The position numbers were made by a program, and so were the translations under genes. Source: Octopus vulgaris (lineage: Eukaryota). From it: a stretch of DNA of 64,000 bases. Below, one piece after another: positions 2,460-63,450 of this stretch (the stretch's first letter is position 1; each line of letters begins with the position of its first letter). Where the stretch lies: contig OX597815.1 in assembly GCA_951406725.2 (NCBI GenBank), positions 131,626,001 to 131,690,000 on the forward strand, written 5' to 3'. A model generated the notes under the pieces. The model had not been told where the DNA came from. It ran no database searches and was given only the letters and a program-made list of their open reading frames with translations.

Positions 2460-3140
2460 TAGAAAATATAAGTTGAAAATGCACGGAGAATAGTTAAAAT
2501 ATTTGTTATTAATATATTTGAAGCTTTAACCGGTTTCACAGCTTACACTGATTTTCAAAAAGTTCAAATAGAAAGGCGTGGCTTATGTCTCAGCTGTCTT
2601 GCTTCTAACCAGTGTTTTATGGCTCAAATTAGTATACGCCTTGAATAATATTTGATTGAATGAGGAGAGTCAGGTGTCTGGTCTTACAAACTATTGTGTG
2701 TTGGTATCAAGTGACAATAGCGTTGTAAGTTAAGGCTGAGACGGTTAACTGAACATATCCAAGCAATCAATGCTCTGATTGTTTTCTATCAGGTGTTTGT
2801 AGAGAATGAATACATGATTAAGTTTATAAACTTTTGTATGTTTCCCCGCTACGCTCGTGCGTTAGTATCACGTGACGGTATATTTTACATCTGAAAACAA
2901 GGCTGAAGGTGTTATGTGGGGTGTCGGTGTGGGGTGTCGGTGTATCGGTAGTAGTGTGGTGAGGAGGAGTTGTCGGTGGTATCACCGAAGAGAGAAGGTG
3001 GGTAGGTGTGAAGAGACGAAGTAGGTGTCAGATGAAGGGAGGAGGGTAGGTTGGGGAAGATGTGCAAGGTGGAGGGGTCGGACTGGAGTTGCCGGAAGGC
3101 TCGGAGAACGGTGTGTTAGAGGGGCAGGATGGAGGGTTGG
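2460..3140 (-). mobile_element. Degenerate Penelope-like element 3' remnant with HHR
   Basis: Minus strand reads ..LYKHLIENNQSID.. (GIY-YIG C-terminal-like), followed by an HHR motif at 2520-2565; abuts (TA)n. Confidence 0.45.
2520..2565 (-). ncRNA. Minimal type I hammerhead ribozyme, U3:A8 variant
   Basis: GAACTTT TTGAAAA TCAG-TGTAAG-CTGT GAAA CCGG TT AAAGCTTC: stem I CTTT/AAAG, stem II CAG/CTG, palindromic stem III. Confidence 0.6.
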
Positions 3141-3294
3141 TAGGTGACACATACATACATACACACACACATACACACACACATATATATATATATTGTA
3201 TATGTGTGAGTGTTTGTGTATGTGTGTGTTTGTGTGTGTGTGTAAGTATGTATACATACTCATGCAGCCAATGATACAAACCTAAGAACGACGT

Positions 3295-3870
3295 CACACT
3301 TATGTTAATTAGAAATGTTTTGCAAGATGATCACACTGTTGTCTTCCGTAGTGCAGAGGATATTCAGAGCAGGTTGGATGCTTTCAACGACACAGCCATA
3401 AACATTGAAACGAAAATTAATATAAGGAACAATGGTGGTACTTTTTTTTTTATTAAAGGTATAATAATCCTTATGAAAGGGCAGGAGTTTGAAAAGGACA
3501 GCTAGTGTACCTATCCCTGCAGTAACATAGGTAATGATAGTAGAGACAGGGACAAACTTGATCGTAGAATGAGCAAGAAGCATCTTGGAATTCCCAATCT
3601 TGGGGGTACAATTGTGGAACAACAAGGTCGTTTTGATTCTAGTGAAGTGCAATGACTTCCAAGCAGTAGTGTTATCCAGCTTATTATGTATGTCAGATTA
3701 ATATTATCCAACTTATTGTGTAGAACAGATTCGAAACTGCATGTATACTTGATGAGACCTTCAGAGGGATCATAAACGTCAGACCAAGAGACAGTGTTGA
3801 ATACTATCTCATATTAGAGAAAACCGAGCCCCTTAGCGTGGAAGAGACATAGGTGCAATGAAACCTCCAC
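3295..3870 (+). mobile_element. RTE-clade LINE reverse transcriptase remnant
   Basis: IRNVLQDDHTVVFRSAEDIQSRLDAF..KIN..KGQEFEK..TY..S.I.ND resembles the RTE RT YADD region and downstream motifs; contains stops and frameshifts. Confidence 0.7.
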
Positions 3871-4017
3871 TGGTTTCAAAATGTTAAAGACTTGTAGCCA
3901 AGTGAAATTACGTTATGCAACTATATTCTATAAAGTGTATTAAGTGTTTTTATGAGTGAATACCACGTCCTACTGCATTAGTAGTGCTCTTTAGATTATT
4001 TTGTTACGGTTATTTCT

Positions 4018-4420
4018 ACAGCACTGATTTTTTGCTACAATGTTTCGTATCGAGGCGCCAGATGTAAACAAATAATGAGATCGGATGTAAAAATGGGTAA
4101 TGAGTGTATATGCCATATTTGGGATTTTTGCCCCTTCATCAGCACTCAAGTAATCCACTCTTGCCTCCGAACACATTGTTTATACAGCCGCCACTTACAG
4201 CAGTCTAAAGTTATTGGATATACCAATTTACACATTAAACTTTACACGGCTGAATGCTGTGTTCGGAGGCAAGTGTGTGTTAGATGAGTGCTGATGAAGA
4301 GGCTAACACCAACCCTAAAATTTATGCATATACACTCATTAACCATTTTTGTCTCCGATCTCATTGTTTGTTTACATCTGAGATCTTGATATGAAACGTT
4401 GTAGCAAAAAGTCAGCGCTG
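4018..4420. repeat. Inverted pair of ~180-bp HHR-bearing repeats (Penelope pLTR-like)
   Basis: 4018-4200 and 4245-4420 are diverged reverse complements. Each arm has GAGTG CTGATGA ... CATA TA CACTC (4102-4147 minus, 4286-4337 plus), with G12 of GAAA lost. Confidence 0.75.
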
Positions 4421-5567
4421 GCTATAATTTTTGTAAAAATATAACCTTAAAAAAATAAGGTTTGAAAATGTTCCGAAAATATAGGAAGCTCAGTAAGTAA
4501 AACATATCATGTATCCACAGTCATCAGCTGGTACGAAACATCAGTATGCGTAAAGTGTATGTATACGACATACACATAATAGGTATGAAGGTATTCATAA
4601 CATGATGTGAGGAGATACATGACAGCGGTAGGAGTACACCAACTGATGTCAGAAACCAGTTAAGAAAATCAATTCACTTGCAATAATACAGCAATCGATA
4701 TTTCGTACGGATAGTCATAATAGATTGTCGGCAGACTGCGTGCAATGGTGAATATACGTGGGCATCAGAGAACAGAATGAAATATAAGGAAATTATGCAA
4801 CACGATCCAAATTTGTGATTCCTCTATTTACTATTTGACAGTTGTTTGTATTATCATTTAGAAGGACGTTAATGCCATAATCCTACTTTCTTAGAATCAT
4901 AATTTTCTTAATACAGCTAATAATCCATTACAGGATATTGATAATTACAGAATAAGCAAAGTAATAAACACAGATATTGCATTCTTGCATATATAGAATT
5001 TCATCTGCGCGTCAAATACATAACAAAACAAATCCATTAATTCCTGTTTCATGACTCCCTATAACCTGATAGTAGCAACGAAGTTCTTTTCAACAAAATC
5101 AATTATCTATTCTCGGAAACCTTATGTTTAAATCCCGCAAATCCGTACTAAATTCATTAAAGAAATGCGTTATACGGCGAATAATAATATTATACCACAC
5201 AATATGGATAAATACAGGTAAAATGCGTAAATTATTCGTATATTGATACGAAATGTATATATTGTATGTACAACTATACAGTCTTTGCATAACAATATTT
5301 AGTTTAATTCGGAGTAGTTTTCATATAAGTTCATTGTGTTATCGCCTACCCACGATTTAATATATAAATCCCTTTTATGTCCTTTCTTTTACTTATCTCC
5401 CACTATCCCCTTCCTCTAACTAAATTCTCCCTCTCTCTCAAATATATATATACGTGTGTGTGCGTGAGTGTGCGTATGTGTGTGTGTGTATTCATGCATG
5501 CAGATAGGCACATGCACACACACTTTTGTATATATGCACACGCATAAATACGATATACGTATACATC

Positions 5568-5645
<78 letters not shown>

Positions 5646-5651
<6 letters not shown>

Positions 5652-6028
5652 TATGAGAGGTAATGGTGTCACTAACGCCCAAAAGTGTCAGAATGAGATA
5701 AAAAACCAAGGCTGTGAAGATTTTAGAACATTTATAAATAGGTCTTACAATTGTTTCCAGAACATTTATTATATCCCTTCATCGAAGACGGTGTGAGAAA
5801 ATGATTAAGCAATAGATAATTTAGATAAGATACGAAATAAAGAGTGACGTAGAGCAATGAAAATAGATGTGAGATATGCAGAGATATTGCATTTGTAGAT
5901 CCATTATTTAGGCAGAATGGTATACATATAAGATTCCAGTACCTTGTGAGTAAATTCCAATGGTGTTTAAAGTTGGTCATTCCAAGTATCCAGTTTGTAC
6001 ACAGTGCTATTGAATCGAGGGTTTTATT

Positions 6029-6116
<88 letters not shown>

Positions 6117-6800
6117 AATAAAACCCTCGATTCAATAGCACTGTGTACAAACTCGATATATATATATAGCTGAGGTTATAAGAGATAATGGTGTCATGTA
6201 ATGCTGAATAAGTGCTATAGACAGACCATATTTAAGTTCCAGATTCAGTAATATTGCGAATAAAGGGTTCAACGTTGGTTCTATGTCAGCGTGTGTATAT
6301 AAGAATTTTTTGCGTAATGAGATAAAAAAAAACCAAGGCTGTATAGATATTAGAGCATTTATAGATAGAAGGTCTTACAGCTGTTTCTAGGATATTAATT
6401 AATAATATCCCTTCATCGGAGACGGTGTGACAGGAAAAATTAAGTCATAGTTAGTTTCGATGTGATACAAATAGGGATTGTGGTGGAGGAAAGAAAATAG
6501 ATGTAAGATATGTATGTGTATTGATTTCGTAAATCCGTTTTATAGGTATAATGGTACATATGCAATATTCCAATATCGTTTGAGTAAAATCCAAAAGTCC
6601 AACAGAGTTTAATATCAGTTCATCCAAATATAGAGTTTATAAGCAATGTAATCTCTATATTTGGATGGATTCATATTAAACTATGTTGGACTTTTGGATT
6701 TTATTCAAAGGATATTGGAATATTGCATATATACCATTATGCCCATAAAAAGGATTTATGAAACCAATACCCATACATATCTTACATCTATTTGTTTCCT
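5646..6800 (-). mobile_element. Two direct copies of an HHR-bearing pLTR-like repeat, each with a terminal fold-back
   Basis: 5646-6010 resembles 6172-6636; HHRs at 5742-5789 and 6372-6423; inverted arms at 5992-6153 and 6487-6636/6654-6800; a related fragment lies at ~19475-19742. Confidence 0.7.
6372..6423 (-). ncRNA. Type I hammerhead ribozyme (C4 variant)
   Basis: GTCT CCGATGA AGGGATATT-ATTAATT-AATATCCTA GAAA CAGCTG TA AGAC; paralog at 5742-5789. Confidence 0.7.
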
Positions 6801-9837: not shown

Positions 9838-10314
9838 TGACGGTGCCGAGCCTTTCTGGTGACGTCGATGTTCGCCTGGGGCTAAATGCAACAGTAACAC
9901 CCCCACCACCCTGCCCTGTCCCTAGCCATATTCAGATGGCTTTAGTCCCTTATGTTATCGAGCAGTTACTGTCTATATCCCTTTTAGAGAATTATTATTG
10001 CTTTCGAACAGATTTTCGAAATCAGCAAATGTATTTTGCTTGAAAATCTATATAAGAAAATCCTGCAGAGTGAGAATTCGTCGAGGAAGCGGAGGCCTAC
10101 CACACGCCGATGATAGGCAATACACCTTGAAACCATGGTCCGTGTGTGGTTTCCGCTTCATCGGGGAATTACCTCCCTTTGCAGGTTAAGGGCACCGTGA
10201 CGGTGTCGAGCCTTTCTGGTGACGTCGATGTTCGCCTGGGGCTAAATGCAACAGTAACACCCCCACCACCCTGCCCTGTCCCTAGCCATATTCAGATGGC
10301 TTTAGTCCCTTATG

Positions 10315-10318
<4 letters not shown>
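9838..10318 (+). mobile_element. Retrozyme-like element: 360-nt unit plus 121-nt direct repeat, with HHR, inserted in (TA)n
   Basis: 9838-9958 equals 10198-10318 with one mismatch (period 360); central HHR at 10101-10146; flanked by TA runs on both sides. Confidence 0.8.
10062..10185 (+). ncRNA. Type I hammerhead ribozyme with long rod-like stem I; predicted cleavage after GUC at 10140
   Basis: CACACG CCGATGA TAGG-CAATACA-CCTT GAAA CCATGG TC CGTGTG; stem I extends via GAAGCGGA/TCCGCTTC, AATTC/GAATT and CCTGCA/TGCAGG. Confidence 0.8.
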
Positions 10319-15330: not shown

Positions 15331-15454
15331 TGGCCGCTGTTCCGTCATTCACTAATATCATCTTCTGATAATCGTATAATTATTTTTAGTTCCATTTTAA
15401 TGCTGTCTTCAATAAAAGTGCTAAAACTATCTCACAGGCATATATCTCTGTCCT

Positions 15455-16415
15455 GACGATACCTGGACGATACCTCAACTTCCATACAGTGTAAAGAGAG
15501 GTGTTGTTGCTCAGTGCCTAAAACATCGAACAACGAATTTAAGTAGCGATCATGATACACACCAAGAAGAAATGATCAAGCTCAATAACAATCTATTAAG
15601 CAACAACTACCCAAAAAACATACTATCCTCTCCAATTATGAAGAAAAGAGAGGATGAAACCAATAAACATTCCACAGTCTGTCTACCCTATATGAAAGGC
15701 CTCTTCCAAAAGAAACAAAAGATATGTGGCCCATATGACATCAGGACAGTATTCAAGAGTAATACAACACTTCGCAAATATCTATTTCGAGTAAAACCAA
15801 TACAAGAGAATATGACCAAAGACTGCGTGTACTTCATCGCATGGATCTGTGGTAGGTTATATAAAGGCGAAACATGCTGCCCCCTTAAAATAAGGGTAGA
15901 CGAACATCGCAAAGCTGTGGCATGAGGAAATATTGATAAATCGGTTATAGCTGATCATGTATGGAAAAATGGAGACCACCTTCTCCTGTGGGATAAAGTT
16001 AAAATAATAGACAGAGAACACCATTAAAAAAATACGGAAACTAAACGAAGCAGCACATATGCTAGGACACAACAATCTCCTAAACAGACCGAGTGCATAT
16101 ATGAGTAGCATATGGGAACCAATATTAAGGAAGGATTGGAGAATATTAGATTTATAAGCCCTATAATTCACTCCATAATTGCCCACAGGCATATGGCGCA
16201 GTGATTAAGAGTGCGGGCTACTAACCCCAAGATTAGTTCGATTCTAGGCAGTGACCCGAATAATAATAATAATAATAATAATAATTTAGGAATGAGAATC
16301 CAGGTTCAAAATTTCCCCCACGACACCTGATGAAAGCTGGACGGTATATGAGCCGAAGAGTTGTGTTAACAAACAAGATGAGGACAAATATCTGTCAAAT
16401 AATGTAAGTAATGTA
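15455..16415 (+). mobile_element. Penelope-like element 3' part: RT thumb, GIY-YIG endonuclease pseudogene, pLTR with HHR
   Basis: LPYMKGL..I....DIRTVFKSNTTLRKYL..K....CVYFI..CG..YKGET..L..RVDEH..*..S.IADHVW..H...WD.V.IIDRE is a Penelope GIY-YIG; HHR at 16323-16366; (AATGTA)-type tail. Confidence 0.9.
16187..16260 (+). other. tRNA-like Pol III head (A and B boxes) within the Penelope 3' region
   Basis: TGGCGCAGTGATT (A box), GGG-CTACTAA-CCC anticodon-like arm, AGTTCGATTC (B box), then (AAT)n. Confidence 0.6.
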
Positions 16416-35667: not shown

Positions 35668-37896
35668 TTATTTATCTATCTATCTATCTGTCCATCTTTC
35701 TCTGTAGATACATTCATACACGAGTGTGTGTGTGTGTACGCGTGGGTGTGTACGCGTGGGTGTATATTTGTGCATATAACAATATATACCTATATATATA
35801 CACATATATATATATATTCTATAAGTGTATGTGTGTATATTATTCTCGTTTAATATTTCTCAGTAACATCAAAATTTCCCAGTTTTTGTAGAGTTAAATT
35901 CAAATTATTTCCCTGAAGACAAACCCAGATAAGAACAATGAACTTACCAGAAACAGAATATATTTACTTTTCAGATACTGACTACGTTGAAAGTATTTAA
36001 TATGTATGATACTCATCATTTCTTCTTTTATTATGAAAGTAAGTTGTGAGGTATGAGGAGTAAAATAGGCTTCAAATTAAATTTTTAAATAATTCAGCAT
36101 ACCAGCTGCGGCCATTACTGATATAATCACGTGAAGACCTCAGTATGTATTCTAAGTAATATTTTGACACAGGTAACAACAAATACTTATTAAGTTGTAC
36201 TTGATTTCCAGCTACGATTGATAAAAATTGACTAATTAGCAGGAGAGATATCAAAGAGTGCGCATGTATTTTACCTTGAATTTTCTTTTATTTAGAAAAA
36301 ATCCATTTTGAAATACATTATATAGGGTCTTCAGAAAAGTGCACGTATCCTGAATATACAAGTGGTTTCTGCTAATGGTTTAGGGGAGAAGTATTCAAAG
36401 TAGGAGATAATGCCCCCAAGGGTGCCCTGGGCAGTCGAAGGCATTAAGGGGCGGCAAGGGAACATAATTAACATATTACATTTTACTTAGAGTAGTAATT
36501 ATATTATACATGATAAAATTATTGATGGTTATCAAAATAAAATGAGAGCTCATCAGGCACTGAGAAGTCATTAATTTTCAATGGACAATGTAAATTTACA
36601 ACTTTTGTCTGATAATTTTTTAATAATTTCACTGTTAAAAGCTTATACAATCCATCTTTAGAGGGGAACTTATAAATTATTATCCATGTTAATTTAGTCA
36701 TGATAACTCACTCCCCACCTAGGCAGGCACTAGGTTTAACAAGTATTCCAAAATGGGGCGCTACAAAACATTTAAGAATCACTGGTTTAGAAGATGGAAA
36801 AATAATGTAAACAGTTTAATTGAAATTTGGAAGCAATGGTGTTTTATAATATTTATATCTGCTTGTATTACTGAAATGCTTTTCCTTACAAACATTTCGA
36901 TGATCACAAAAGTAGATGATAGCAGCCAGATGAATATTATGTTATAGGAAAACTACAATTGGATCGTGAAACGTCGTCTTAATATAATAGACGTTGCCTA
37001 AATGTCATTGATCGAAGGAAATAATAATACTAGTGGCTTGCTATTTGATTTGATATGAGGACATTTAAATAAATTCTCTTTAAGAGTGGTAAATAATACA
37101 ACAAACAATGAAATACCAATATAAGGACATTCTGAACTCGTTGCAAATGATAAGAATTCATAAAACCTAGGCCAATGCACTCTTTTCTGGAATTATATTT
37201 AAAATTTTGCCCGAGTCTTTTTCAAATTCATCAAGCCTTATCCTTAACCAATAAACATATAATTCATTTGGGTACTCCCTTCTTATAAACAATATAAAAA
37301 CTGCATTCGGTAATATTTGTGATAAATAAAACAGTGAGCTTTGCAGAACCGTTACTGTTCCGAACAAAACGCTTAGCGGTATTTCTAATGACTATACGAC
37401 CTGAATTCTAATGCCGGCACGATCGACTTTGTCTTTCATCAATTTGCTAAGGTTGTGCGAAAATTTGAAATCATTATGTTTCCTTCAAACAGCACTCTTA
37501 ACACAATTTTTCTCTTCAAAAATGTTTTTTTTTAAATATGTTCATGCAAAGCTACACCAGGTATTTTTTAACTGAATTTTAGGTACGTTCATCTCATAGA
37601 TTTTCATCTTCCATTTGTTGTAAGCACTTTTATTTTATGTTTGAGTGACCGAACATTTAACACATTACTTATTACGTTTCTGTGAGTGAACGCATTGAAC
37701 ATGGTAATAAGCTAACTAACACCTAAATGCTTCACTTACGAAGGTTGAGTATCCTCATAAATCATCCAACAATTTTCAGGTAAATAATTCTTGCGTCGCA
37801 GCACGAACCATAACTCGTCATATACACAGACACTCAGTTACTCCTTCCCAGACTCATTTACATGTTCATACTTATACATACATGTATATATATATA

Positions 37897-38055
37897 TAAA
37901 ATTAGAAAAAAAAACACCTTTTATCAATTCGAAATGAACAATTACATTACACCATCTAGAATATTACATATAATAGAAATATTAATATTAAAATAACAAT
38001 AAAATGTTAAAGATTAAGTAAATTGCAAAAAAAAGATAATAATAATAACGTATAT
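37897..38055 (-). mobile_element. Terminal fragment of the 60.5-63.4 kb element family
   Basis: Approximate reverse complement of 63290-63445 (ccatctagaa..ttacatataatagaaatatt). Confidence 0.7.
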
Positions 38056-38101
38056 ATATTGTATATATATGTGTGTGTGTATGTATGTGTGTGTGTGTGT
38101 A

Positions 38102-38151
<50 letters not shown>

Positions 38152-38299
38152 TGTGTGTGTTTGTATGTGTATGTGTATATGTGCATGATTGTGTGCATAT
38201 ATATTGCACAAAATAATAAAAACAGACGGATTATATAAGAATATCAGAAAGGCACAGAAATGGGTGAATATTAGTCTGGTTAAACTATCAGTTTAGTGG

Positions 38300-38670
38300 C
38301 TGTAAATGGAGCACATACTATTATATAAATATATGTTCCATAAAAGAAGTAAAGTCGATGGTCGCTTTATTTACAGTATTATCTTAGCTGGAGCAGACCC
38401 TGGTAATCGCTCTGTTAAGCAGGTGCTCGTGAAGACGGGCCAACTAGATCGAAACAGAGTCAGTCTTTTGATCCTGTTGTCTACTAGAGGATGGTTGTAA
38501 TTCGCTCCGGTAACCAACCGGTGGAAGATCTGCCTGGGGTTAAACTAGTAGTAACATGGAACAGCCACTTTGATGTGGCGATTGAATTTACTTGTTAGTA
38601 TAGTTACTACTCTGATCTATTCTTGAGATTTTACTATGGTCGCTTTGGTAGTACCTAATTAAACTAAATC
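38300..38670 (+). mobile_element. Divergent retrozyme-like unit
   Basis: Degenerate HHR at 38425-38465, CCTGGGGTTAAA at 38533-38544, GCCAC/GTGGC hairpin at 38564-38579, GTTACT block. Confidence 0.5.
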
Positions 38671-38699
38671 TTTATATATATATATATATATATATATTA

Positions 38700-39365
38700 T
38701 TAATAGATATCACCATACTAATATTGCAGTCTATAAATAAAACTAAAGCTGTCGCTGATTAGCTCCAAGAGGCCATCGCCTCTAGCTAGCTATATAACAC
38801 ACGAACCTGCGTCCATTACAACCTTCGAACAGGGAGGTCAGCCGCTTCACCTTGCTAGTCAGACATCTGCAGACATGTTTCAGGGTTGTTGCCCTTTATC
38901 AATGCAGCGTAGTCAGAACCAGCAGGTGTCGCTACTGACCGTCTGTTCGAAGATTTTATTTACCTAGTTACAGTGGAATACATCCACTTGTTTTCAATAA
39001 TAGAAATATTAAAATTACTAGGTCTCTCTAAAGGAGATTACGGCAGCGTTACTGGATATTAATAGTTATCGCCATACTAATATGGCAGTCTACGCTGCAT
39101 TGGTAAAGGGCAACAACCCTGAAACATGTCTGCAGATGTCTGACTAGCAAGGTGAAGCGGCTGACCTCCCCTGTTCGAAGGTTGTAATGGACGCAGGTTC
39201 GTGTGTCATATAGCTAGCTAGAAGCGATGGCCTCTTGGAGCTAATCAGCGACAGCTTTAGTCTTATTTATAGATTGCCATATTAGTATGGCGATAACTAT
39301 TAATATCCAGTAACGCTGCCGTAATCTCCTTTAAAGAGACTTAGTAATTTTAATATTTCTATTAC
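38700..39365. mobile_element. Retrozyme-like/pLTR units in nested inverted arrangement with two HHRs
   Basis: 38706-38910 is inverted relative to 39092-39295, and 38998-39092 is inverted relative to 39272-39365; HHRs at 38867-38907 (-) and 39095-39135 (+). Confidence 0.8.
38867..38907 (-). ncRNA. Minimal type I HHR, U3:A8 variant, GUC site
   Basis: CTGCA TTGATAA AGGG-CAACAA-CCCT GAAA CATG TC TGCAG; all three stems are perfect. Confidence 0.8.
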
Positions 39366-39369
39366 ATAT

Positions 39370-39379
39370 ATTATTGCTA

Positions 39380-39441
<62 letters not shown>

Positions 39442-39532
39442 GTCATCATTATTATTATTATTATCATTATTATTATTATTGTTGTTGTTGTTGTTATTAT
39501 TATTATTGTTGTTATTATTATTATTGTTGTTG

Positions 39533-39575
<43 letters not shown>

Positions 39576-39596
39576 CATTATTATTATTATTATTAA

Positions 39597-39632
<36 letters not shown>
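39370..39632. repeat. (ATT)n/(GTT)n trinucleotide microsatellite
   Basis: Direct inspection; source of the poly-N, poly-I and poly-L ORFs. Confidence 0.95.
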
Positions 39633-39633
<1 letters not shown>

Positions 39634-40320
39634 TCTAAATCTCTCAAAGGGAAACATTCAGTAACAGCTCTTTAAGGTAAAGGCTATTTGCTAACATAAT
39701 GTGGCTGTCCTGGAAGAGAAAATATTATTGTTGTTTAGCCCCAGGAATCATTGTCTCTAGCTGGCTACACGACACAATATCTGTGTCCTTATATTTTCGA
39801 ACAGAGAGTTCATCACCGTCATCTAGCACAAAACAATGTCTGTGAACCGGTTTCTGGGTTATTGCGCCTTATTAACACAGAGTAGTTGCTTGGCTAGATG
39901 GCTAAACAACAGTAGCATTGTCCCTTCCAGGACAGCCACATTATGTTGGCAAATAGCCTTTACTTTAAAGAGCTGTTACTCAATATCTCTCTTTGAGAAG
40001 CTTAGAAATAATATTTCTATTTTTAGATCCGTGACTGTGTGTCGCTTTGAAAACTATATATTCAAACAGTGTATTCAGCAACGCCATCTAGCCAAGCAGC
40101 TACTCTGTGTTGATAAAGGAAATAACCCAGAAATCGGTCCATAGATATTATAGATATTGTTTTGTGCTAGATGGGAGTGCGGAATTCCCTGTTCGAAAAT
40201 ATAAGGACACAGATATTGTATCGTATAGCCAGCTATAAACGATGTCTCCCGAGGTAAACAACATTAACATCGTCCGTTTCTGGACAATCACATTATGTTG
40301 GAAAATAGCCTTTACTTTAT
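39630..40320. mobile_element. Retrozyme-like units: inverted copy plus a ~355-nt unit with terminal redundancy
   Basis: 39630-39910 is a minus copy with HHR at 39840-39880. 39915-40320 is a plus copy with HHR at 40105-40144 (CTGTG TTGATAA AGG..CC CA GAAA TCGG TC CATAG); ggaca..cacattatgttgg recurs at ~39930 and ~40282. Confidence 0.75.
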
Positions 40321-42013
40321 ATATATATACGATTTTCAGGATCCGAATTAATTAGGTATTTAAACAGTAAAAGCACCAAGATAGAGTCAAGGATAGCACA
40401 CCTGTGCACCGACAATGTATATTGACAAATTCGTACTTTCAGTCATGCACAGACCCACAAGTACTGACTGATTACTGAATTTTTCATCGTAGTGACACAG
40501 ATCCACTGCACTTATTCATTAGTCGACTATAAACTCCAGATGAAAACGTAGGGAAGGTTCCGAGTAAGGGGAAGAATAAATGACAACTGCATGATATGAA
40601 ATAAAGTGGCAGCTCTCAACATGTTAAGATTAATCTGTAATATTCGTCTACAGAAAACGTAATTACAGGTAGGAACTAAAACAGGGATTTTATTTAGAAT
40701 TCCCGTTTTGAACAGTTTTCATATGAATCTCCTAACATGTATTTAGTTTAAAATGATATGGAAAACATTTGGATACACTTCGAAAAATTTAACTACATAA
40801 TTGCAAACAGCAATGTTTTTTTCTTTTTTGAAAATCAAGTATTTAATAAAGTTTTGTCTGTCGAAATATTGTTGTGACAAGTTATTGATATGTATTAGAT
40901 TGGGTAAGATATATGTTCCAATATGTTCCACTATAGAGTGCAGTCCATTAAAATGTTGATCTAATCCTATTTGTAATTGATTCTGAAATCCTTCATGTAA
41001 AAAAAAAAAATATTAGCACTCTGAAATATTTGCCATGTTTACTGAAAGGGAATTTAATTTACAAATCTGATCAATCTCTTTTTGGACCAAAAGCGTTTAT
41101 AATTTTATAAAAAACAATTTGACATTAAAGTCATTATTATAATTAATGGTTAGAAATATTTTAATAAAACATTTTAAATATAATATTGTTATAAACATTG
41201 CAAACGTTTCAATTATAGAATTTAATTAATTCCCTTTGTAACTCAGCTCTTAAAGACGAGTTAAAAAATTTTTCTCATTTTTTTATCACCATTATATTAC
41301 GATAACAATCAGGTTTTCTGGGCTGTTTTAAAGCATCTGTTATTTTGTTATAAAAATATTTCGTGCTGGCATTATTAAAACGAAAACCAGTTTCTGGAAA
41401 TAAAAGGTTCTTTTTTAACTTTTCTGACAAAATTTAAAATAAATGTTTTGTTGAGCATGGCTTAGAATCGTTATTTATAGTGTTTAGGCAACTTCTTTAA
41501 ATGAAATACAAAAATCTAAATATTATAAAATATTAAAGCCTCAGAGTTATTGATTAAGAAATATTGAAGAAACAGTAAGAATTAGGTTTCGATAGACATT
41601 AGACATTTGGAACACCGTTGAAAAAACTTCTTATATAAGTAAATTTTTCAACGGAAGCTATAGTGGTGTAGTTATATGTTATATATTCATAGGAATTTAT
41701 TCACATAGATTCGTTGTTAGAGAACTTGTAACTATTGCAGTGATCTCTTGCTCACCATCGTACCACAATATAAAGTTACACAGGCCGGCGATTAAGAATG
41801 AAATAAATTTACAAGACCGAGATGACTTAAAAAACAGTGAGTGTCCTTAACAATCGCATCATATACCACACATATAGACATTATCAATGTTATACACACG
41901 AGTTAATAGAAGACAACATTACTATTTTTCTAGCTTTTACATAAAATTTGAAATATACTGCTGATTTATAGCCTACTTGCCTTGATTTAATTTTAACGAA
42001 ATTAACTGAAATA

Positions 42014-52366: not shown

Positions 52367-54010
52367 TTCTTTATTACCCACTAGGGGCCACACAGAGGGG
52401 GACACTACAAACATTGGGGACATAGAACATCACGATTACAACGAATGAAAGATGAATTTTGAAAATGATAATATGAAAGTGATGCTAACGGCCCCATCCG
52501 CTAGCATCACTTCCCTGTCCTTTAGTCGTTAATCCCACACAAATGCTCCTTGTTCAGTTCCTATACAAAGTCCTTCCATCTCCATCCTTGTTTCAAACGT
52601 CTCTTCCAAATCCCTCATGATTTTTTCGACAATTCTCACTTCATTTACTTCTCAATCCTCACTTCATTTACTTCTCAATCCTCCCTTTCACACATTATCA
52701 TAAACTCGTCCATTCGTTCTTTTTCAATTACTGCATACCTGATCGGTCCTCTGTCACACCATTGATATTCTTCCATTGTCTTTTTAATTTTTTTCTTTTC
52801 CCGTCATACATACAATGTTTGGCCTGGGTTCATTTTTTGTATCATGGTTGTGTGTGTCTTTTCCTTTCTGTTTTCTTGTTGGAGGGGAGCGGGTGGGTTC
52901 ACTGTCCGCAGGGAGAGGGTGGGACTCAGAGGGTGTGGGTGGTGTTGGGGTGGTTTGGGATTCCATACTGTTTGCTTTTCCTCTTATTCTTCTTTTCCTC
53001 TTTCTCCTGGCTTCTTTCCATTCTTTTGAATTATTTTCTTCTTCTGTTATCTCCTCTTCTGTTTTCTACTCTTTTTCCGCCTCTCTTTGTTGTTCCGCAT
53101 CCATATCTTTCTCTGGGGGAGGGCAGTTAGCTCTTATGTGGCCCCTCAGGCCACACTTGTAACAACGTGGAGCTCTGCCCTCAACCCACACTCTCATGAT
53201 TACGTCTCCCAATCTGATGTTCTCTTCTAGGTCCTCCAGTACATTATCCTCCGCCTGCATATTTAGATCCAGTGTCGCGCCTCTCCAGCCCTCGGTCTTT
53301 ACCGTGGCATGGAAGATGTCCACTTCATCCTCATGATCGCTAATTGTAGCTGTCACAATCCACTCAGCTTCGACGTTTGGGGGTATTCCCTCAACCCTTA
53401 TTCTAGTAATTTTCCTGTTGAAGTATGAGGGCAAAAGGAATACCCTCTCAGATTTCACTGCTTTCGCCGCCATCCTCCTTGCTGTATTTTCACTCCTGAA
53501 CTGTACCACCACAGTACCATAGCTTATACCTCTTGTCAGAAATATTATTTCCACTTCTGTTCTTCTCAGAGCCTCCTCTATCCACTCCATATTCACCACT
53601 TTGATTTTTCTCTTTCCGTTTACGTAGACCCTGTTTGTAATGGTCCTTTTCTCGTACCATTCTCTGCGCTTTCGTGGCGGTGCCAATTCCACCTCACCTC
53701 CGTCCTTCCTGACATACGTCTGGTAACTTGGCAGCTTGGCCAAGTCCAACCCTCTCTCCTCCGATTTTTTAGCCACTCCAGCATAGGTATTACCTAGTTT
53801 CTGGTCCATTCTCCTCACCGCTTCCTCCAATTCCTCCTCAGACGTAGACAAGTCCGATAGGGTTTCGAACATTCTTGCCGTCTCTCCCATTTGGGAGGGA
53901 TTGTTCTTGTCTGTCTTAACGCAGACAGACAAACACCGCGCATCCGTACAACAAAAAACGCTTAACAAAACTTACGTGCAACGCAGCAACAAAAATTAAC
54001 TCACGACTTC
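52367..54010 (-). mobile_element. ORF1-only non-LTR retroelement (HAL1-like) nested in the Penelope-like element
   Basis: 5' UTR, zinc-knuckle ORF1, short 3' UTR with hairpin, AATAAAGAAAA tail and a degenerate ~21-bp flanking duplication; no room for EN/RT. Confidence 0.7.
53066..53890 (-). CDS. LINE ORF1/gag-like nucleic-acid-binding protein with CCHC zinc knuckle (probably truncated by a premature stop)
   Basis: ATG at 53890 (MGETARMF); RIRVEGIPPNV..W RRM-like segment; RVWVEGRAPRCYKCGLRGHIRANC. Charged and Pro-rich coding-like sequence continues through stops and frameshifts to ~52530. Confidence 0.8.
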   Translation of the reverse strand: MGETARMFETLSDLSTSEEELEEAVRRMDQKLGNTYAGVAKKSEERGLDLAKLPSYQTYVRKDGGEVELAPPRKRREWYEKRTITNRVYVNGKRKIKVVNMEWIEEALRRTEVEIIFLTRGISYGTVVVQFRSENTARRMAAKAVKSERVFLLPSYFNRKITRIRVEGIPPNVEAEWIVTATISDHEDEVDIFHATVKTEGWRGATLDLNMQAEDNVLEDLEENIRLGDVIMRVWVEGRAPRCYKCGLRGHIRANCPPPEKDMDAEQQREAEKE

Positions 54011-55075
54011 GATAGCCCAAACGAAAAAATTAAAACAGTAAAAGAATTTTCTTTTAAAGCAGTAGAGAAATAAGGCGGTAAAAAAATGTGTGTATTAAAT
54101 TAAATTAAGTTCAATTAAATTAAATTGAATTAAATTGAATTAAATTGAGCCTCCGTGGTTTCAAATCCTGTAAAAGCTAAATTATTCATTTTCTACAACT
54201 TATTTTATTCCTATAGACTCAAAATAATGGGTGTATTAAATTAAATTAAGTTCATTTAAATTAAATTGAATTAAATTGAATTAAATTGAGCCTCCGTGGT
54301 CCCAAATCCTGTAAAAGCTAAATTATTTATTTTCTACAACTTATTTTATTTCTATAGACTTTTAAGAATGTAGAAGAAAATTTATGGATGCAAAAGGGAA
54401 TCACGTCCGTAAATTTATTCAGAATGTGCGGTCCATAACACCTAAGGATGGTAAGTGATTCCCTTATGCATAGCTTACATTTGTTGATATTTCTCTTGAA
54501 ATTTGGGGTTTTAGAAATAATGGACCATTCTAGATGATAATTCTTATTAGTTTTCTTCAAGTTGTGTATATGAGATGCAAGTGTAGTTGAGTTACATTAT
54601 TAGTCGTCAGCAAAAGAGCTCATATGTAATATATATCTCGCCTTAAAGTCTATCGTGCTACCTATATAAAATTTATTTAGCTTATCTTCGTCCTTGACTA
54701 CACATTTATATATAACGTTGGTAACTAGACAGGAACCATCTAAAGGACATGATTCGGGTTTTCTACAGTTACATGTCTTTCCGGGGCCTTTCCTAGTTTT
54801 ATTCCTATTGTTACCTTTACTTCTTGTATCTCCAGTTCCAGACGGGTTTCCCGTTTTCATTCCATCAAATCTTCTTTATTACATGGGTTCGATATACCCG
54901 GTAAAGGCAGACTGCTTGTAGCATTGGCATTAGGCGTTACAAGATTATCATACGCAGTTCGTTCTTTGGTCATCCTCAAAAGAACTTTTTCCGCTATTCC
55001 ACCCAGCAAGCTTGCTTCTATTGATTGAAGCAATGATGGAAGCAAAGTTAGGCATTACAGAGTAAGAGAACATAT

Positions 55076-60515: not shown

Positions 60516-63450
60516 GAAATTACATATAATAGAAATATTAAATATAGGATAAAAAGTATATCGATGAATAAGTAATCTGCAAAATAATCAATAAAACGTA
60601 TATATTTGGTTGAATAACGACACCTGTTTCGTGGCTATATTTAAGAAATGATTATAGTAAAAATATTAGTAATAGTAAAATCACTTCAGTATACATATAG
60701 CCACTCATCCGGTGAAAAATAACTACAATAATAAAATAATTAATTAATAAATATACGTAAATAATCTTTTGAAAAAGATGGGTGGTAAAGGGTAGTCGGC
60801 TGTGAAGACATTTGGTGGTAGCTGGCGGTTTGTTGTAGATTGGGTTAGTAGCAGTGATGGTAATAATAATGATATTCGGGTACAGTGGGATGTAGGTTCC
60901 GGGTAGTATTGATGAACAAGCAATACTTGTTATCCTATTTTCATTACTTTTCTTTGATTCATGAAACTTGAATATTTTTTGTATTTTTCATTAATAGATA
61001 GTTTTCGCCATTTTCATTGATAATTTATTCTATTTCTTTAAACAACGTCTCCACGAGTTTAATTTCTTATAAACGCTAAGAACTATTCTTTTACATTTAA
61101 AATTTAGTTATATTATATTCTCAACAAGCTAAGTAACGTTGTTTGTTTATCAATATTGTTTGGATTTTGCATTATATGGGATTAATAGTTGTTGTTGTTA
61201 TTGTTATTGAATTATTAATAGTGGGCTGTTAGTTGCAGTTGGGTGTCTTCATGTTAGATTGTTCATATGCTGTATTTTTCCTCACCTTTCTTTAGTTCAT
61301 GAGGCTTAAATGTTTTCTCGTACTTTTCATTGATAAATAGTTTTCGCCATTTTCATTGATAATTTATTCTATTTGTTTACACAAAGCCTTCACGCGTTAA
61401 ATTTTATAAACGCTAAGGACTATTTTTTTACGTTTAAAATTCAGTTATATTTTTTCTTCGACAAGCTAACTAACGGTTTTCGCTTATAAATATTATTTGG
61501 CTTTTGAATAATATTGGGTTTGATTATTATTGTTATTATTATTGTTGTTGAAATATTATTATTTATGTTGTTTTATTGATTATCTATATTATTTGGATTT
61601 TGAATTGTTTTTGGTTTGATATTATTATTATTATTATTGTTGTTGTTGTTGTTGTTGAACTATTATTACTTTTATTTATAGTTTCTTGACAGTTATTAGT
61701 TACGATCGTTATTAGTTATGATATCTATGTATTTAATATGATTTAGTATTAATTTTATAAACAGATTTAACGTATTACATATAATTTAATTTGAGAATTA
61801 GTTTTGTTAGACTATACATTATTTAATTATTAGGTGGTATTTTTATCAAGTAGTATTACATTTAAGTAAATTAGTTTTTATATTAATTAATATGTTGGTC
61901 AACTTTATTATTGTGTGAAATATTAAATCTATAGATACTACATATATATTAATAATATAGTTAGTTTATATAATGGGTTTGTGTATATTTGAACTATTTC
62001 CTATTTTTGATTCCATCATTTATGACTTGTACTAGCATTGGGTATATTAATTAAGGCGCTAAGACATATATTTATACATTTAAAATCCAGTTGTATTAAT
62101 TTAATCGATAAGCTTAGGAACTTTGTTTATCAATATTATTTGGATTTTATATTATATTGAGTTTGATTGTTATTATTATTATTGTTATTGACTGGATTTG
62201 TAGTGGACTGTCGGTTGTAGCTGAATGTCTTCATAGTGTGTTGTTCATTCGTTCTAATATTTTCGTACCTTTCTTTAATTTGTGGGGCTTAGATGTTTTT
62301 CGTACTTTTCATTAGTAAATTGTTTTCGCCATTTTCATTGATAATTTATTTAATTTGTTTACACTAAGACTTCACGGGTTTAACTTTTATAAGTACTAAG
62401 ACCTATATATTTTTTTACGTTTAAAATTCAGTTATATTATTTTCATCGACAAGCTAAGTAACGGTTTTTGCTTATAAATATTATTTGGCTTTTGAATAAT
62501 ATTGGGTTTGATTATTATTGTTATTATTATTGTTATTATTATTGTTGTTGAAATATTATTATTTATATATATATTGATAGTTATAAGTTATGATAGTTAT
62601 TAATTACGATATCTATTTATTAAGAATGATTTATTATTATTTTTATAAACGGATTTAACGTATTACATATAATTTAATTTGAGAATTAATTTTGTTATAT
62701 AATACATTATTTAATAACTAGGCGGTATATTTATCAAGTAGTGTTACATTTAAGTAAATTAGTTCTGATATTAATTGATATTTTGGTCAACTATATTATT
62801 GAGTGATATATTAAATCTATAGATACTACATATATATCAATTTTATTGTTAGTTTATATAATGGGTGTGTCTAAATTCTAACCATTTCTTATTTTTGATT
62901 CCAGAATTTTTGGCTTATACTAGCATTATGTAAAGTAATTAATTTTAAGTTTTAATTGCTTAATGGGTAGTAGACTGTATTTGGATGTTTATTAAATAAA
63001 TATATTAATAATTTGATTTAATGTATATAGTTGAAATTGTTGTATATAGTTTTCACTTAATGTATATTTTGTATCTTATATATATATATATTAAATATAT
63101 TAAAGAATATATTTATTTTTAAAAGATTATTTACGTATATTTATTAATTAATTATTTTATTATTGTAGTTATTTTTCACCGGATGAGTGGCTATATTTAT
63201 ACTGAAGTGATTTTACTACTACTACTAATATTTTTACTATAATCATTTCTTAAATATAGCCAGGAAACATGTGTCTTTATTCTACCAAATATATACGTTT
63301 TATTGATTATTTTGCACATTACTTAATCATCGGTATATTTTTTAATCTTATATTTAATATTTCTATTATATGTAATTTTCTAGATGGTGCAATTTAATTT
63401 TTCATTTTCAATTGATAAAAGGTATATTTTTCTAATTTATATATATATTA
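60516..63450. mobile_element. ~2.9-kb element bounded by ~260-bp inverted HHR-like repeats, with internal direct repeats (PLE-derived)
   Basis: 60516-60775 is the reverse complement of ~63115-63378. Internal repeats ttttcgccattttcattgataatttatt occur at ~61002, 61341 and 62323; 61690-62040 resembles 62580-62930. Confidence 0.75.

Follow-up and report, generated by a model that had tools for sequence, protein, structure and literature searches.

Four elements in the window, the 64,000-nt stretch of Octopus vulgaris DNA analysed here, are copies of four high-copy families of non-coding repeats, A–D. They are listed below with the parts recognised in each copy, namely a hammerhead ribozyme, a sequence block of the pattern GAT..CYTGGRGYTAA, a GCCAY hairpin, hairpins H1–H3 of a head domain described further on, and the site at which the copy ends. 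Two such sites are distinguished: e1, ~9-22 nt past the GCCAY hairpin, and e2, ~45-60 nt further. No real open reading frame (ORF) crosses the window elements, as the frames there merely run through microsatellites.

9838..10318, plus strand: family A copy, 1.34 units of 360 nt (unit positions 58-538), flanked by TA repeats, ending at e1, 99.8% identical to the consensus
9867..9940, plus strand: head domain copy 1 in A, from the 3' side of hairpin H2 to the GCCAT hairpin
10038..10054, plus strand: AT-rich TATA-like segment 5' of the A hammerhead, homologous to 40044 by alignment, TATA likeness being one of sequence only
10100..10148, plus strand: type I hammerhead of A with palindromic helix III; at 10107 the core, CCGATGA, is a U4C variant, and the cut is predicted after 10140
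10190..10318, plus strand: head domain copy 2 in A, with H1, H2, the start of H3 and the GCCAT hairpin, interrupted at e1
38347..38356, minus strand: possible 10-nt inverted stub of family B ending at e1 (weak; by eye against the B consensus)
38356..38634, plus strand: family B copy, old, with an internal deletion, ending at e2
38424-38471, plus strand: hammerhead of the B copy, C3 lost
38527 (block) and 38564-38579 (hairpin), plus strand: block and hairpin of the B copy
38673..38697: (TA)n tract between the B and C insertions
38698..39092, minus strand: family C minus arm, 1.1 units, ending at e1, 97.7% identical to the consensus, block at 38777
38867-38907, minus strand: hammerhead in the C minus arm, intact U3-A8 core
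39090..39364, plus strand: family C plus arm, ending at e2 with the tail included, 97.8% identical to the consensus, block at 39226
39100-39106, plus strand: hammerhead core in the C plus arm, mutated
39369..39633: (TAT)n tract between the C and D insertions
39624..39902, minus strand: family D minus arm, ending at e2, 88.6% identical to the consensus, block at 39749
39875-39869, minus strand: hammerhead core in the D minus arm, mutated
39900..40319, plus strand: family D plus arm, 1.2 units, ending at e1 against TA, 88.3% identical to the consensus
40105-40144 (U3-A8 hammerhead), 40044 (TATA-like segment) and 40241-40258 (decayed block), plus strand: parts of the D plus arm

The sequence-only reading had seen in these elements a divergent superfamily of retroelements that are non-coding, bear hammerheads and share conserved blocks outside the ribozyme; alignments, pattern counts and covariation bear this out. 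The shared block is real, with copies at 9867, 10227, 38527 and 39226 on the plus strand and at 38777 and 39749 on the minus strand, and its combination with the GCCAY hairpin lies far above chance (five matches in the window and zero in all 100 dinucleotide shuffles; across the genome, 10,282 exact matches versus 1 for the reversed pattern). Several details changed: the stretches 38698-39364 and 39624-40319, taken as single elements, each consist of two inverted arms, the fourth block quoted is actually on the minus strand, the plus-arm version (40241-40258) having decayed, and GAT, placed ~70-100 nt after the hammerhead, lies 62-96 nt from the ribozyme cut in the window copies. The segment GCTT(T)GAAAA(T)CTATATA does occur at both 10038 and 40044, which correspond in the alignment, yet in the D consensus it reads CACTTTGAAAACTATATA, and families B and C have no such segment. 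As for the hammerheads ascribed to all four elements, the core is intact at 10107 (CCGATGA) and at 38902 on the minus strand and 40110 (both TTGATAA) but decayed at 38430, 39100 and 39875 on the minus strand (judged by eye), i.e. three of six cores are broken.

At 38356-40319, three different families lie inside 2 kb with only (TA)n and (TAT)n tracts between them, which is consistent with repeated use of the same microsatellite targets. Further minimal hammerhead-like motifs occur in the window at 6419 (minus), 6828 (plus), 10531 (minus), 12814 (minus), 13942 (plus), 17985 (plus) and ~31920 (minus); they sit in short repeats that are unrelated and have no head domain, and the 10531 motif adjoins the TA tract right of family A. 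The window also holds a 301-aa open frame with a C-terminal zinc knuckle (53066-53971, minus strand; PF00098, E=0.001) that resembles LINE ORF1, a separate 141-nt tandem pair at 54080-54360 and, at 60517-63378, an AT-rich stretch with direct repeats of 480-500 nt within a 260-nt inverted repeat.

Seven related families and their class

First-look searches of the genome, which spans 2.8 Gb and is rich in TA and other microsatellites, gave 712 (A), 1,063 (B), 2,656 (C) and 2,442 (D) candidates, 40 of each being scored. The pattern of hairpin H2 (6,664 genome matches versus 28 in controls; none in a metagenome scan) led to three further families, E, F and G, which we reconstructed, and to several partly seen ones; the superfamily is larger than seven families. 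Consensus lengths from A to G are 360, 361, 362, 346, 353, 354 and 353 nt, with observed periods of 336-355 nt in D, and pairwise identity among the seven units is 44-75% (values from the B and E consensus as they stood before faulty segments were put right). When consensus units were aligned formally with BLAST, the proposed relationship was recovered for C-D (E=1.5e-10), A-D (2.8e-7) and B-D (0.002), but A-B, A-C and B-C gave no significant pairwise match. Family A is very young (99.9% identical to its consensus), while C stands at ~98% and B and D at ~91%. Copies are both dispersed over many contigs and arranged in tandem: block-to-block periods are visible in B, C, D, F, G and at least one E locus, and the largest A arrays reach 15 minus-strand and 8 plus-strand units. 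Additional divergent families with the head domain were seen at L297:907-1263 and L264:5189-5339 and in loci L165, L220 and L221.

In all seven consensus units a type I hammerhead can be recognised by its core, its three helices and the cut triplet, with helix III short and mostly palindromic (topology assessed by eye). Core sequences are CCGATGA in A (37/37 copies), CTGAAGA in B (the commonest form), TTGATAA in C (31/33) and D (17/30), CTGATGA in E (12/12), TTGACAA in F (4/4) and CTGACGA in G (10/11). C3-G8 and U3-A8 cores alternate between families, U3-A8 being found in three of the seven (C, D and F), and A, whose hammerhead has 804 exact copies genome-wide, carries U4C. U3-A8 is a known covariation in hammerheads of Penelope-like elements (PLEs), as the available text of PMC4209133 reports, and U4C reduces in vitro activity yet suffices in a viroid, according to the available text of PMC3088659. 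The Rfam model Hammerhead_1 (RF00163) recognised G alone, matching its hammerhead over the whole model with 32.2 bits (E=1.5e-4) and thus under the gathering score of 34, whereas A–F loci, which share the topology but include the U4C and U3-A8 variants, were not recovered at E<=0.5. Rfam found no hammerhead in the window at the gathering score and none at E<=10 in 37800-41000. The units match no tRNA, SRP, snRNA or telomerase family in Rfam; matches at relaxed thresholds were rejected as miRNA-type and microsatellite-driven.

Non-LTR retrozymes, described in 2020, are non-coding repeats of 150-450 nt with a type I hammerhead, tandem or dispersed, whose predicted circles are self-paired (available text of PMC7229834). 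Their units measure 350-390 nt in mussel and 330 and 350 nt in axolotl, and expression and circles were demonstrated in coral, mussel and axolotl (available text of PMC7229834 and bioRxiv 10.64898/2026.07.22.740005). Units of 346-362 nt in tandem, with a type I hammerhead, no coding sequence, no LTR and a highly self-paired predicted circle, agree with this description; we are therefore highly confident that the families belong to the animal non-LTR retrozymes, a known kind, and the earlier suggestion of an undescribed system is not supported, given the agreement in size, tandem layout, hammerhead type and lack of coding sequence. The octopus families were characterised here in DNA.

A covarying head domain and two fixed copy ends

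The consensus circles of A–D fold at z=-4.9 to -10.2 (40 shuffles each), and the seven families have a predicted common plan with a long stem capped by the ribozyme and a multi-hairpin head at the opposite end; in the fold of the window copy, the family A hammerhead caps a long stem with z=-7.1. CYTGGRGYTAA is the 3' strand of H2, two stems flanking a nearly invariant internal loop (AGCU opposite UGG; UUUCU in A), and GTTACT pairs with AGTAAC to form H3, which encloses the GCCAY hairpin. According to this model, the two-block pattern is made up of parts of one shared covarying hairpin domain. Covariation was assessed in 16 real copies, ten from A–G and six from the partly seen families. In the 28-pair head structure, 92% of cells pair and 18/28 pairs show two-sided changes, a combination reached by 0/500 shuffles (slid controls: 2-8 pairs), in a test that ignores relatedness and uses a structure drawn from the same 16 sequences, with family A misaligned in H2. 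RNAalifold independently returned the same five helices with 31 pairs, 18 of them with two-sided change, and a shifted H2 register. The arms of the GCCAY hairpin, said to covary, do so at the fifth pair only (4 U-A, 2 C-G, 10 unpaired of 16), the outer four pairs being nearly invariant; neighbouring helices covary more strongly. Taken by itself, the head has a weak predicted fold in the window copies (z -0.27 to -1.76), and the second head domain of A (10190..10318) does no better than shuffles (z=-0.27). Base-pair covariation points to selection on RNA rather than on a DNA promoter. Readings as a Pol III B box or an H/ACA box were dropped, since the candidate letters vary across families (judged by eye).

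After removal of overlapping duplicates, 204 3' ends were mapped in 130 of 145 loci, of which 83 lie at e1, 97 at e2 and 24 elsewhere (180/204 at the two sites); the e1 and e2 windows make up 16% of the unit and were defined after inspection of the data, and the A–D loci had been chosen with queries ending at those sites. In families E–G, whose loci were found by an internal motif, 56 of 60 3' ends fall into the e1/e2 windows. Most copies of all seven families have e1 12-19 nt past the hairpin despite differing local sequence, and other AT-rich parts of the unit seldom serve as ends. Copies are 5'-truncated, many with inverted arms, and both orientations are present in 71 of 125 family-locus pairs. 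Among these two-armed loci, 56 combine e1 with e2, 11 have one unplaced end, two combine e2 with e2, two have both ends unplaced and none combines e1 with e1. The e1+e2 pairing holds for the C and D elements of the window and may hold for B. Flanking TA is evident in A (19/19), C (34/39) and G (12/12) and mostly not visible in E (1/32), B (9/32), D (12/34) and F (4/12).

PLEs characteristically form partial tandems, carry an inverted copy truncated at its 5' end, have a tail at a single end and insert into (TA)n (available text of PMC8557442), and the purified anole Poseidon element cuts and extends both strands, with two internal RNA start sites bounding its tail (PMC11167929). The e1+e2 pairing and the two fixed ends match the two internal start sites and the tail of PLEs. 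By this analogy, e1 and e2 may be start sites of reverse transcription, and we regard it as fairly probable that the adjacent head positions them. Recruitment of a reverse transcriptase (RT), one of the roles suggested for the blocks, gains support because both fixed copy ends lie at or just beyond the head domain.

The likeness extends to the EN+ PLEs Neptune, Hydra and Poseidon as they appear in the available text of PMC8557442, PMC11167929 and PMC4209133: partial tandems, 5' truncation, an inverted 5' copy, a one-end tail, a type I hammerhead with palindromic helix III and its U3-A8 variant are common to both, as are AT/(TA)n targets in families A, C and G. Unlike those elements, the octopus units have no ORF for RT and GIY-YIG, and their tail measures 45-60 nt against the reported 30-40 nt. 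Unlike non-LTR retrozymes as described in the available literature, they comprise at least seven families united by a single covarying head domain, to which their two fixed ends are tied.

Autonomous Penelope-like elements in the genome

The genome contains intact Neptune-like ORFs of 781 aa with RT and GIY-YIG, intact Hydra-like ORFs of 899 aa with DKT, CxxC and CxH motifs, two Neptune-related families and a decayed Poseidon-like one, the clade names resting on motifs rather than a tree. The three motifs mark the Hydra clade (available text of PMC8557442); Pfam gave no RT match for the 899-aa protein. Neptune-like and Hydra-like elements each have two ends of their own, with tails, measured by eye, of ~38 nt and ~150 nt, respectively, versus 45-60 nt in the retrozymes, and the Neptune-like element has the same U3-A8 core and helix III as family C.

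Several features of these elements were noted in passing. The Hydra-like hammerhead has a very long helix II, the Hydra-like tail is optional and far above the 30-40 nt reported for PLEs, and locus L257 (G000:C1:119514500-119524400) holds Hydra-like head-to-tail tandems of ~3.6 kb with many intact 899-aa frames. In a young Neptune-like element (L116-L119), an open frame of ~330-380 aa lies 5' of the RT-endonuclease frame; its 3' UTR is long and repetitive, and its hammerhead has a U3-A8 core. A Poseidon-like Penelope fragment at 15425-16300 of the window (plus strand) has decayed; its C-terminus is of GIY-YIG type, its 3' end contains a minimal hammerhead, and it has 2,830 first-look candidates genome-wide.

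None of the UTRs in 95 loci of the five autonomous families contains the head domain, a seven-family profile having detected only embedded retrozyme copies in these loci. The units are thus not merely pLTRs of any sampled autonomous family, and because the domain is missing from all sampled autonomous UTRs, the usual link to a helper through a shared 3' end is missing as well. Around 175 element loci, six query proteins revealed no same-strand Penelope-type ORF closer than 856 nt. Each protein search for autonomous elements scored the best 147-150 of 2,830-6,725 candidates; these searches addressed Neptune-, Poseidon- and Hydra-like elements, with the Naiad, Nematis and EN-minus clades outside their scope.

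Hand counting gave three retrozyme fusions, in which no TA separates the two partners, in a set of 75 non-redundant Hydra-like loci (from 79 retrieved). In L261, a C arm ending at e2 is inverted against a Hydra-like PLE that ends at its own first site; in L273, an F arm is inverted against a truncated Hydra-like ORF, with damaged ends; and in L295, a C-like piece reaching from the predicted cut to e1 is fused in sense to a Hydra-like ORF. Direct fusions numbered 0 in 56 Neptune-type loci (~40 visible junctions, duplicates included) and 0 in 20 Poseidon-like loci. The difference between 3/75 and 0/~40 is too small to separate the clades, the more so as the Neptune-like element resembles family C in ribozyme core and helix III. 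The three junctions nonetheless hint at a Hydra-clade element as helper, and a Hydra-like family is our tentative candidate, at somewhat less than even odds. Locus L331, where another repeat separates a C-like dimer from a Neptune junction 150 bp away, was not counted as a fusion, nor were L010, L061, L120, L122, L171 and L308, which look like neighbours in shared TA targets.

Template, mechanism and alternative readings

With a probability of roughly 0.68, we propose that these at least seven related ~350-nt non-coding families, likely retrozymes, make an RNA that the enzyme of an autonomous PLE binds at the head and reverse-transcribes into AT-rich DNA. Arrays would be transcribed, hammerheads would cut the multimers to monomers and a host ligase would close these into circles. 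A Penelope-type protein would bind the head with H1, H2 and H3 and nick both target strands, and one cDNA would begin at e1 and another at e2, so that the insertion acquires two arms and a one-sided tail; by running round the circle, the RT would generate arrays.

Among 197 arms (153 loci), 115 cross the predicted ribozyme cut, 66 span at least one unit and 13 at least two, and 5' ends do not pile up at the cut (7/197 arms, ~7 expected). Templates are hence circles or uncut multimers, and linear cut monomers are therefore not the main template. Private variants, counted as ordered pairs with CpG sites excluded, are shared in C by 40/89 tandem, 130/213 inverted and 172/3888 between-locus pairs, and in G by 30/35, 8/11 and 12/106, respectively; in F the inverted arms also exceed the between-locus rate well, B, D and E show weak sharing and A shows none (0/39 tandem). 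A single template for each insertion would account for this, circle and multimer fitting equally, and gene conversion could add to it. Two of four sequencing runs presumed to be RNA yielded, over an A array, a 390-letter contig that would fit one closed 360-nt unit; it was discarded, as a DNA tandem gives the same contig and the run type is a presumption.

We lean slightly towards the circle. The same class and helper type could instead use the uncut multimeric transcript of an existing array, with the hammerhead incidental to insertion, a reading we consider possible though doubtful. In its favour, the anole element still inserts normally in vitro when its hammerhead is mutated, with uncut RNA as the chief substrate (PMC11167929), only 1/9 Xenopus retrozyme dimers was cleaved (available text of bioRxiv 10.64898/2026.07.22.740005), and arms across the cut site with shared variants suit multimers just as well. 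However, arrays of 15+8 units need a source at least equally long when 5' truncation shortens copies in every round, the catalytic core is kept by compensatory C3-G8/U3-A8 swaps across families ~45-75% identical, and the L295 piece, a single case, begins at the predicted cut site.

That the head serves transcription, stability or ligation of the RNA, while local AT-rich sequence rather than protein binding sets the fixed ends, is unlikely. The head domain is common to no sampled autonomous element, and both ends lie in AT-rich stretches able to pair with nicked TA targets, as such a role would allow; yet the constant e1 spacing across seven families of differing sequence, the rare use of other AT-rich parts as ends and the covariation, with its bearing on RNA, speak against it.

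We consider it distinctly improbable that the units are pLTRs of an unsampled or extinct autonomous Penelope-like family and the copies its truncated ends. In Xenopus, 24/57 retrozyme families match transposable elements at their termini, 21/22 of these elements being PLEs (available text of bioRxiv 10.64898/2026.07.22.740005), which lends this reading some force, as does the scope of our protein searches given above. Unlike many Xenopus families, the octopus units match the pLTR of no sampled local autonomous family: two fixed ends and an inverted 5'-truncated arm, as in a non-autonomous PLE, were found, and sequence shared with an autonomous pLTR was not (five families sampled). The units join head to tail without coding sequence, none of the 175 loci runs into a same-strand Penelope-type ORF within 856 nt, and the profile finds embedded copies only in the 95 PLE loci. 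Spread of a satellite-like DNA by unequal crossing over, with no RNA step, would explain tandem arrays of near-identical units but is scarcely credible given dispersal over many contigs, 5' truncation, inverted arms, two fixed 3' ends and compensatory base changes.

The proposed capture of a PLE enzyme can be taken further. The families may form a self-standing lineage of ~350-nt circular RNAs whose own protein-binding head has no counterpart in the helper RNA; it would capture a Penelope-clade, possibly Hydra, RT, and the complex would prime twice on opposite target strands at sites set by the head and roll round the circle. We offer this as a speculative extension that is unlikely to hold in full.

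Our literature search found nothing on these families or on the conserved head domain, although Repbase or Dfam may hold them as unclassified or Penelope repeats; in the available text of two cephalopod genome papers, hammerhead counts and Penelope abundance are the only related content. Head domain and end geometry are features of an otherwise known class that we did not find in print; the novelty of the superfamily is lower than first thought, yet it tells more than an ordinary repeat would. Both the mode of copying of animal retrozymes and the enzyme behind it are stated open questions: mobility through PLEs was proposed in PMC7229834 and is supported by pLTR homology in bioRxiv 10.64898/2026.07.22.740005, the available text of both leaving the mechanism open. 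To these questions the superfamily brings a near-identical young family (A), a structure defined by covariation, start sites predicted to the base, intact candidate helper ORFs in the same genome and fusion junctions. With the existing in vitro assay for a Penelope-like protein (PMC11167929), circle versus multimer, the role of the domain and the helper are each testable. The e1+e2 rule also bears on how PLEs produce inverted, one-tailed insertions. If the lineage of circles is indeed self-standing, its seven families would be a natural mutagenesis series that defines which RNA signal serves telomerase-related RTs, and in the retrozyme-PLE fusions the helper would have left its first physical trace.
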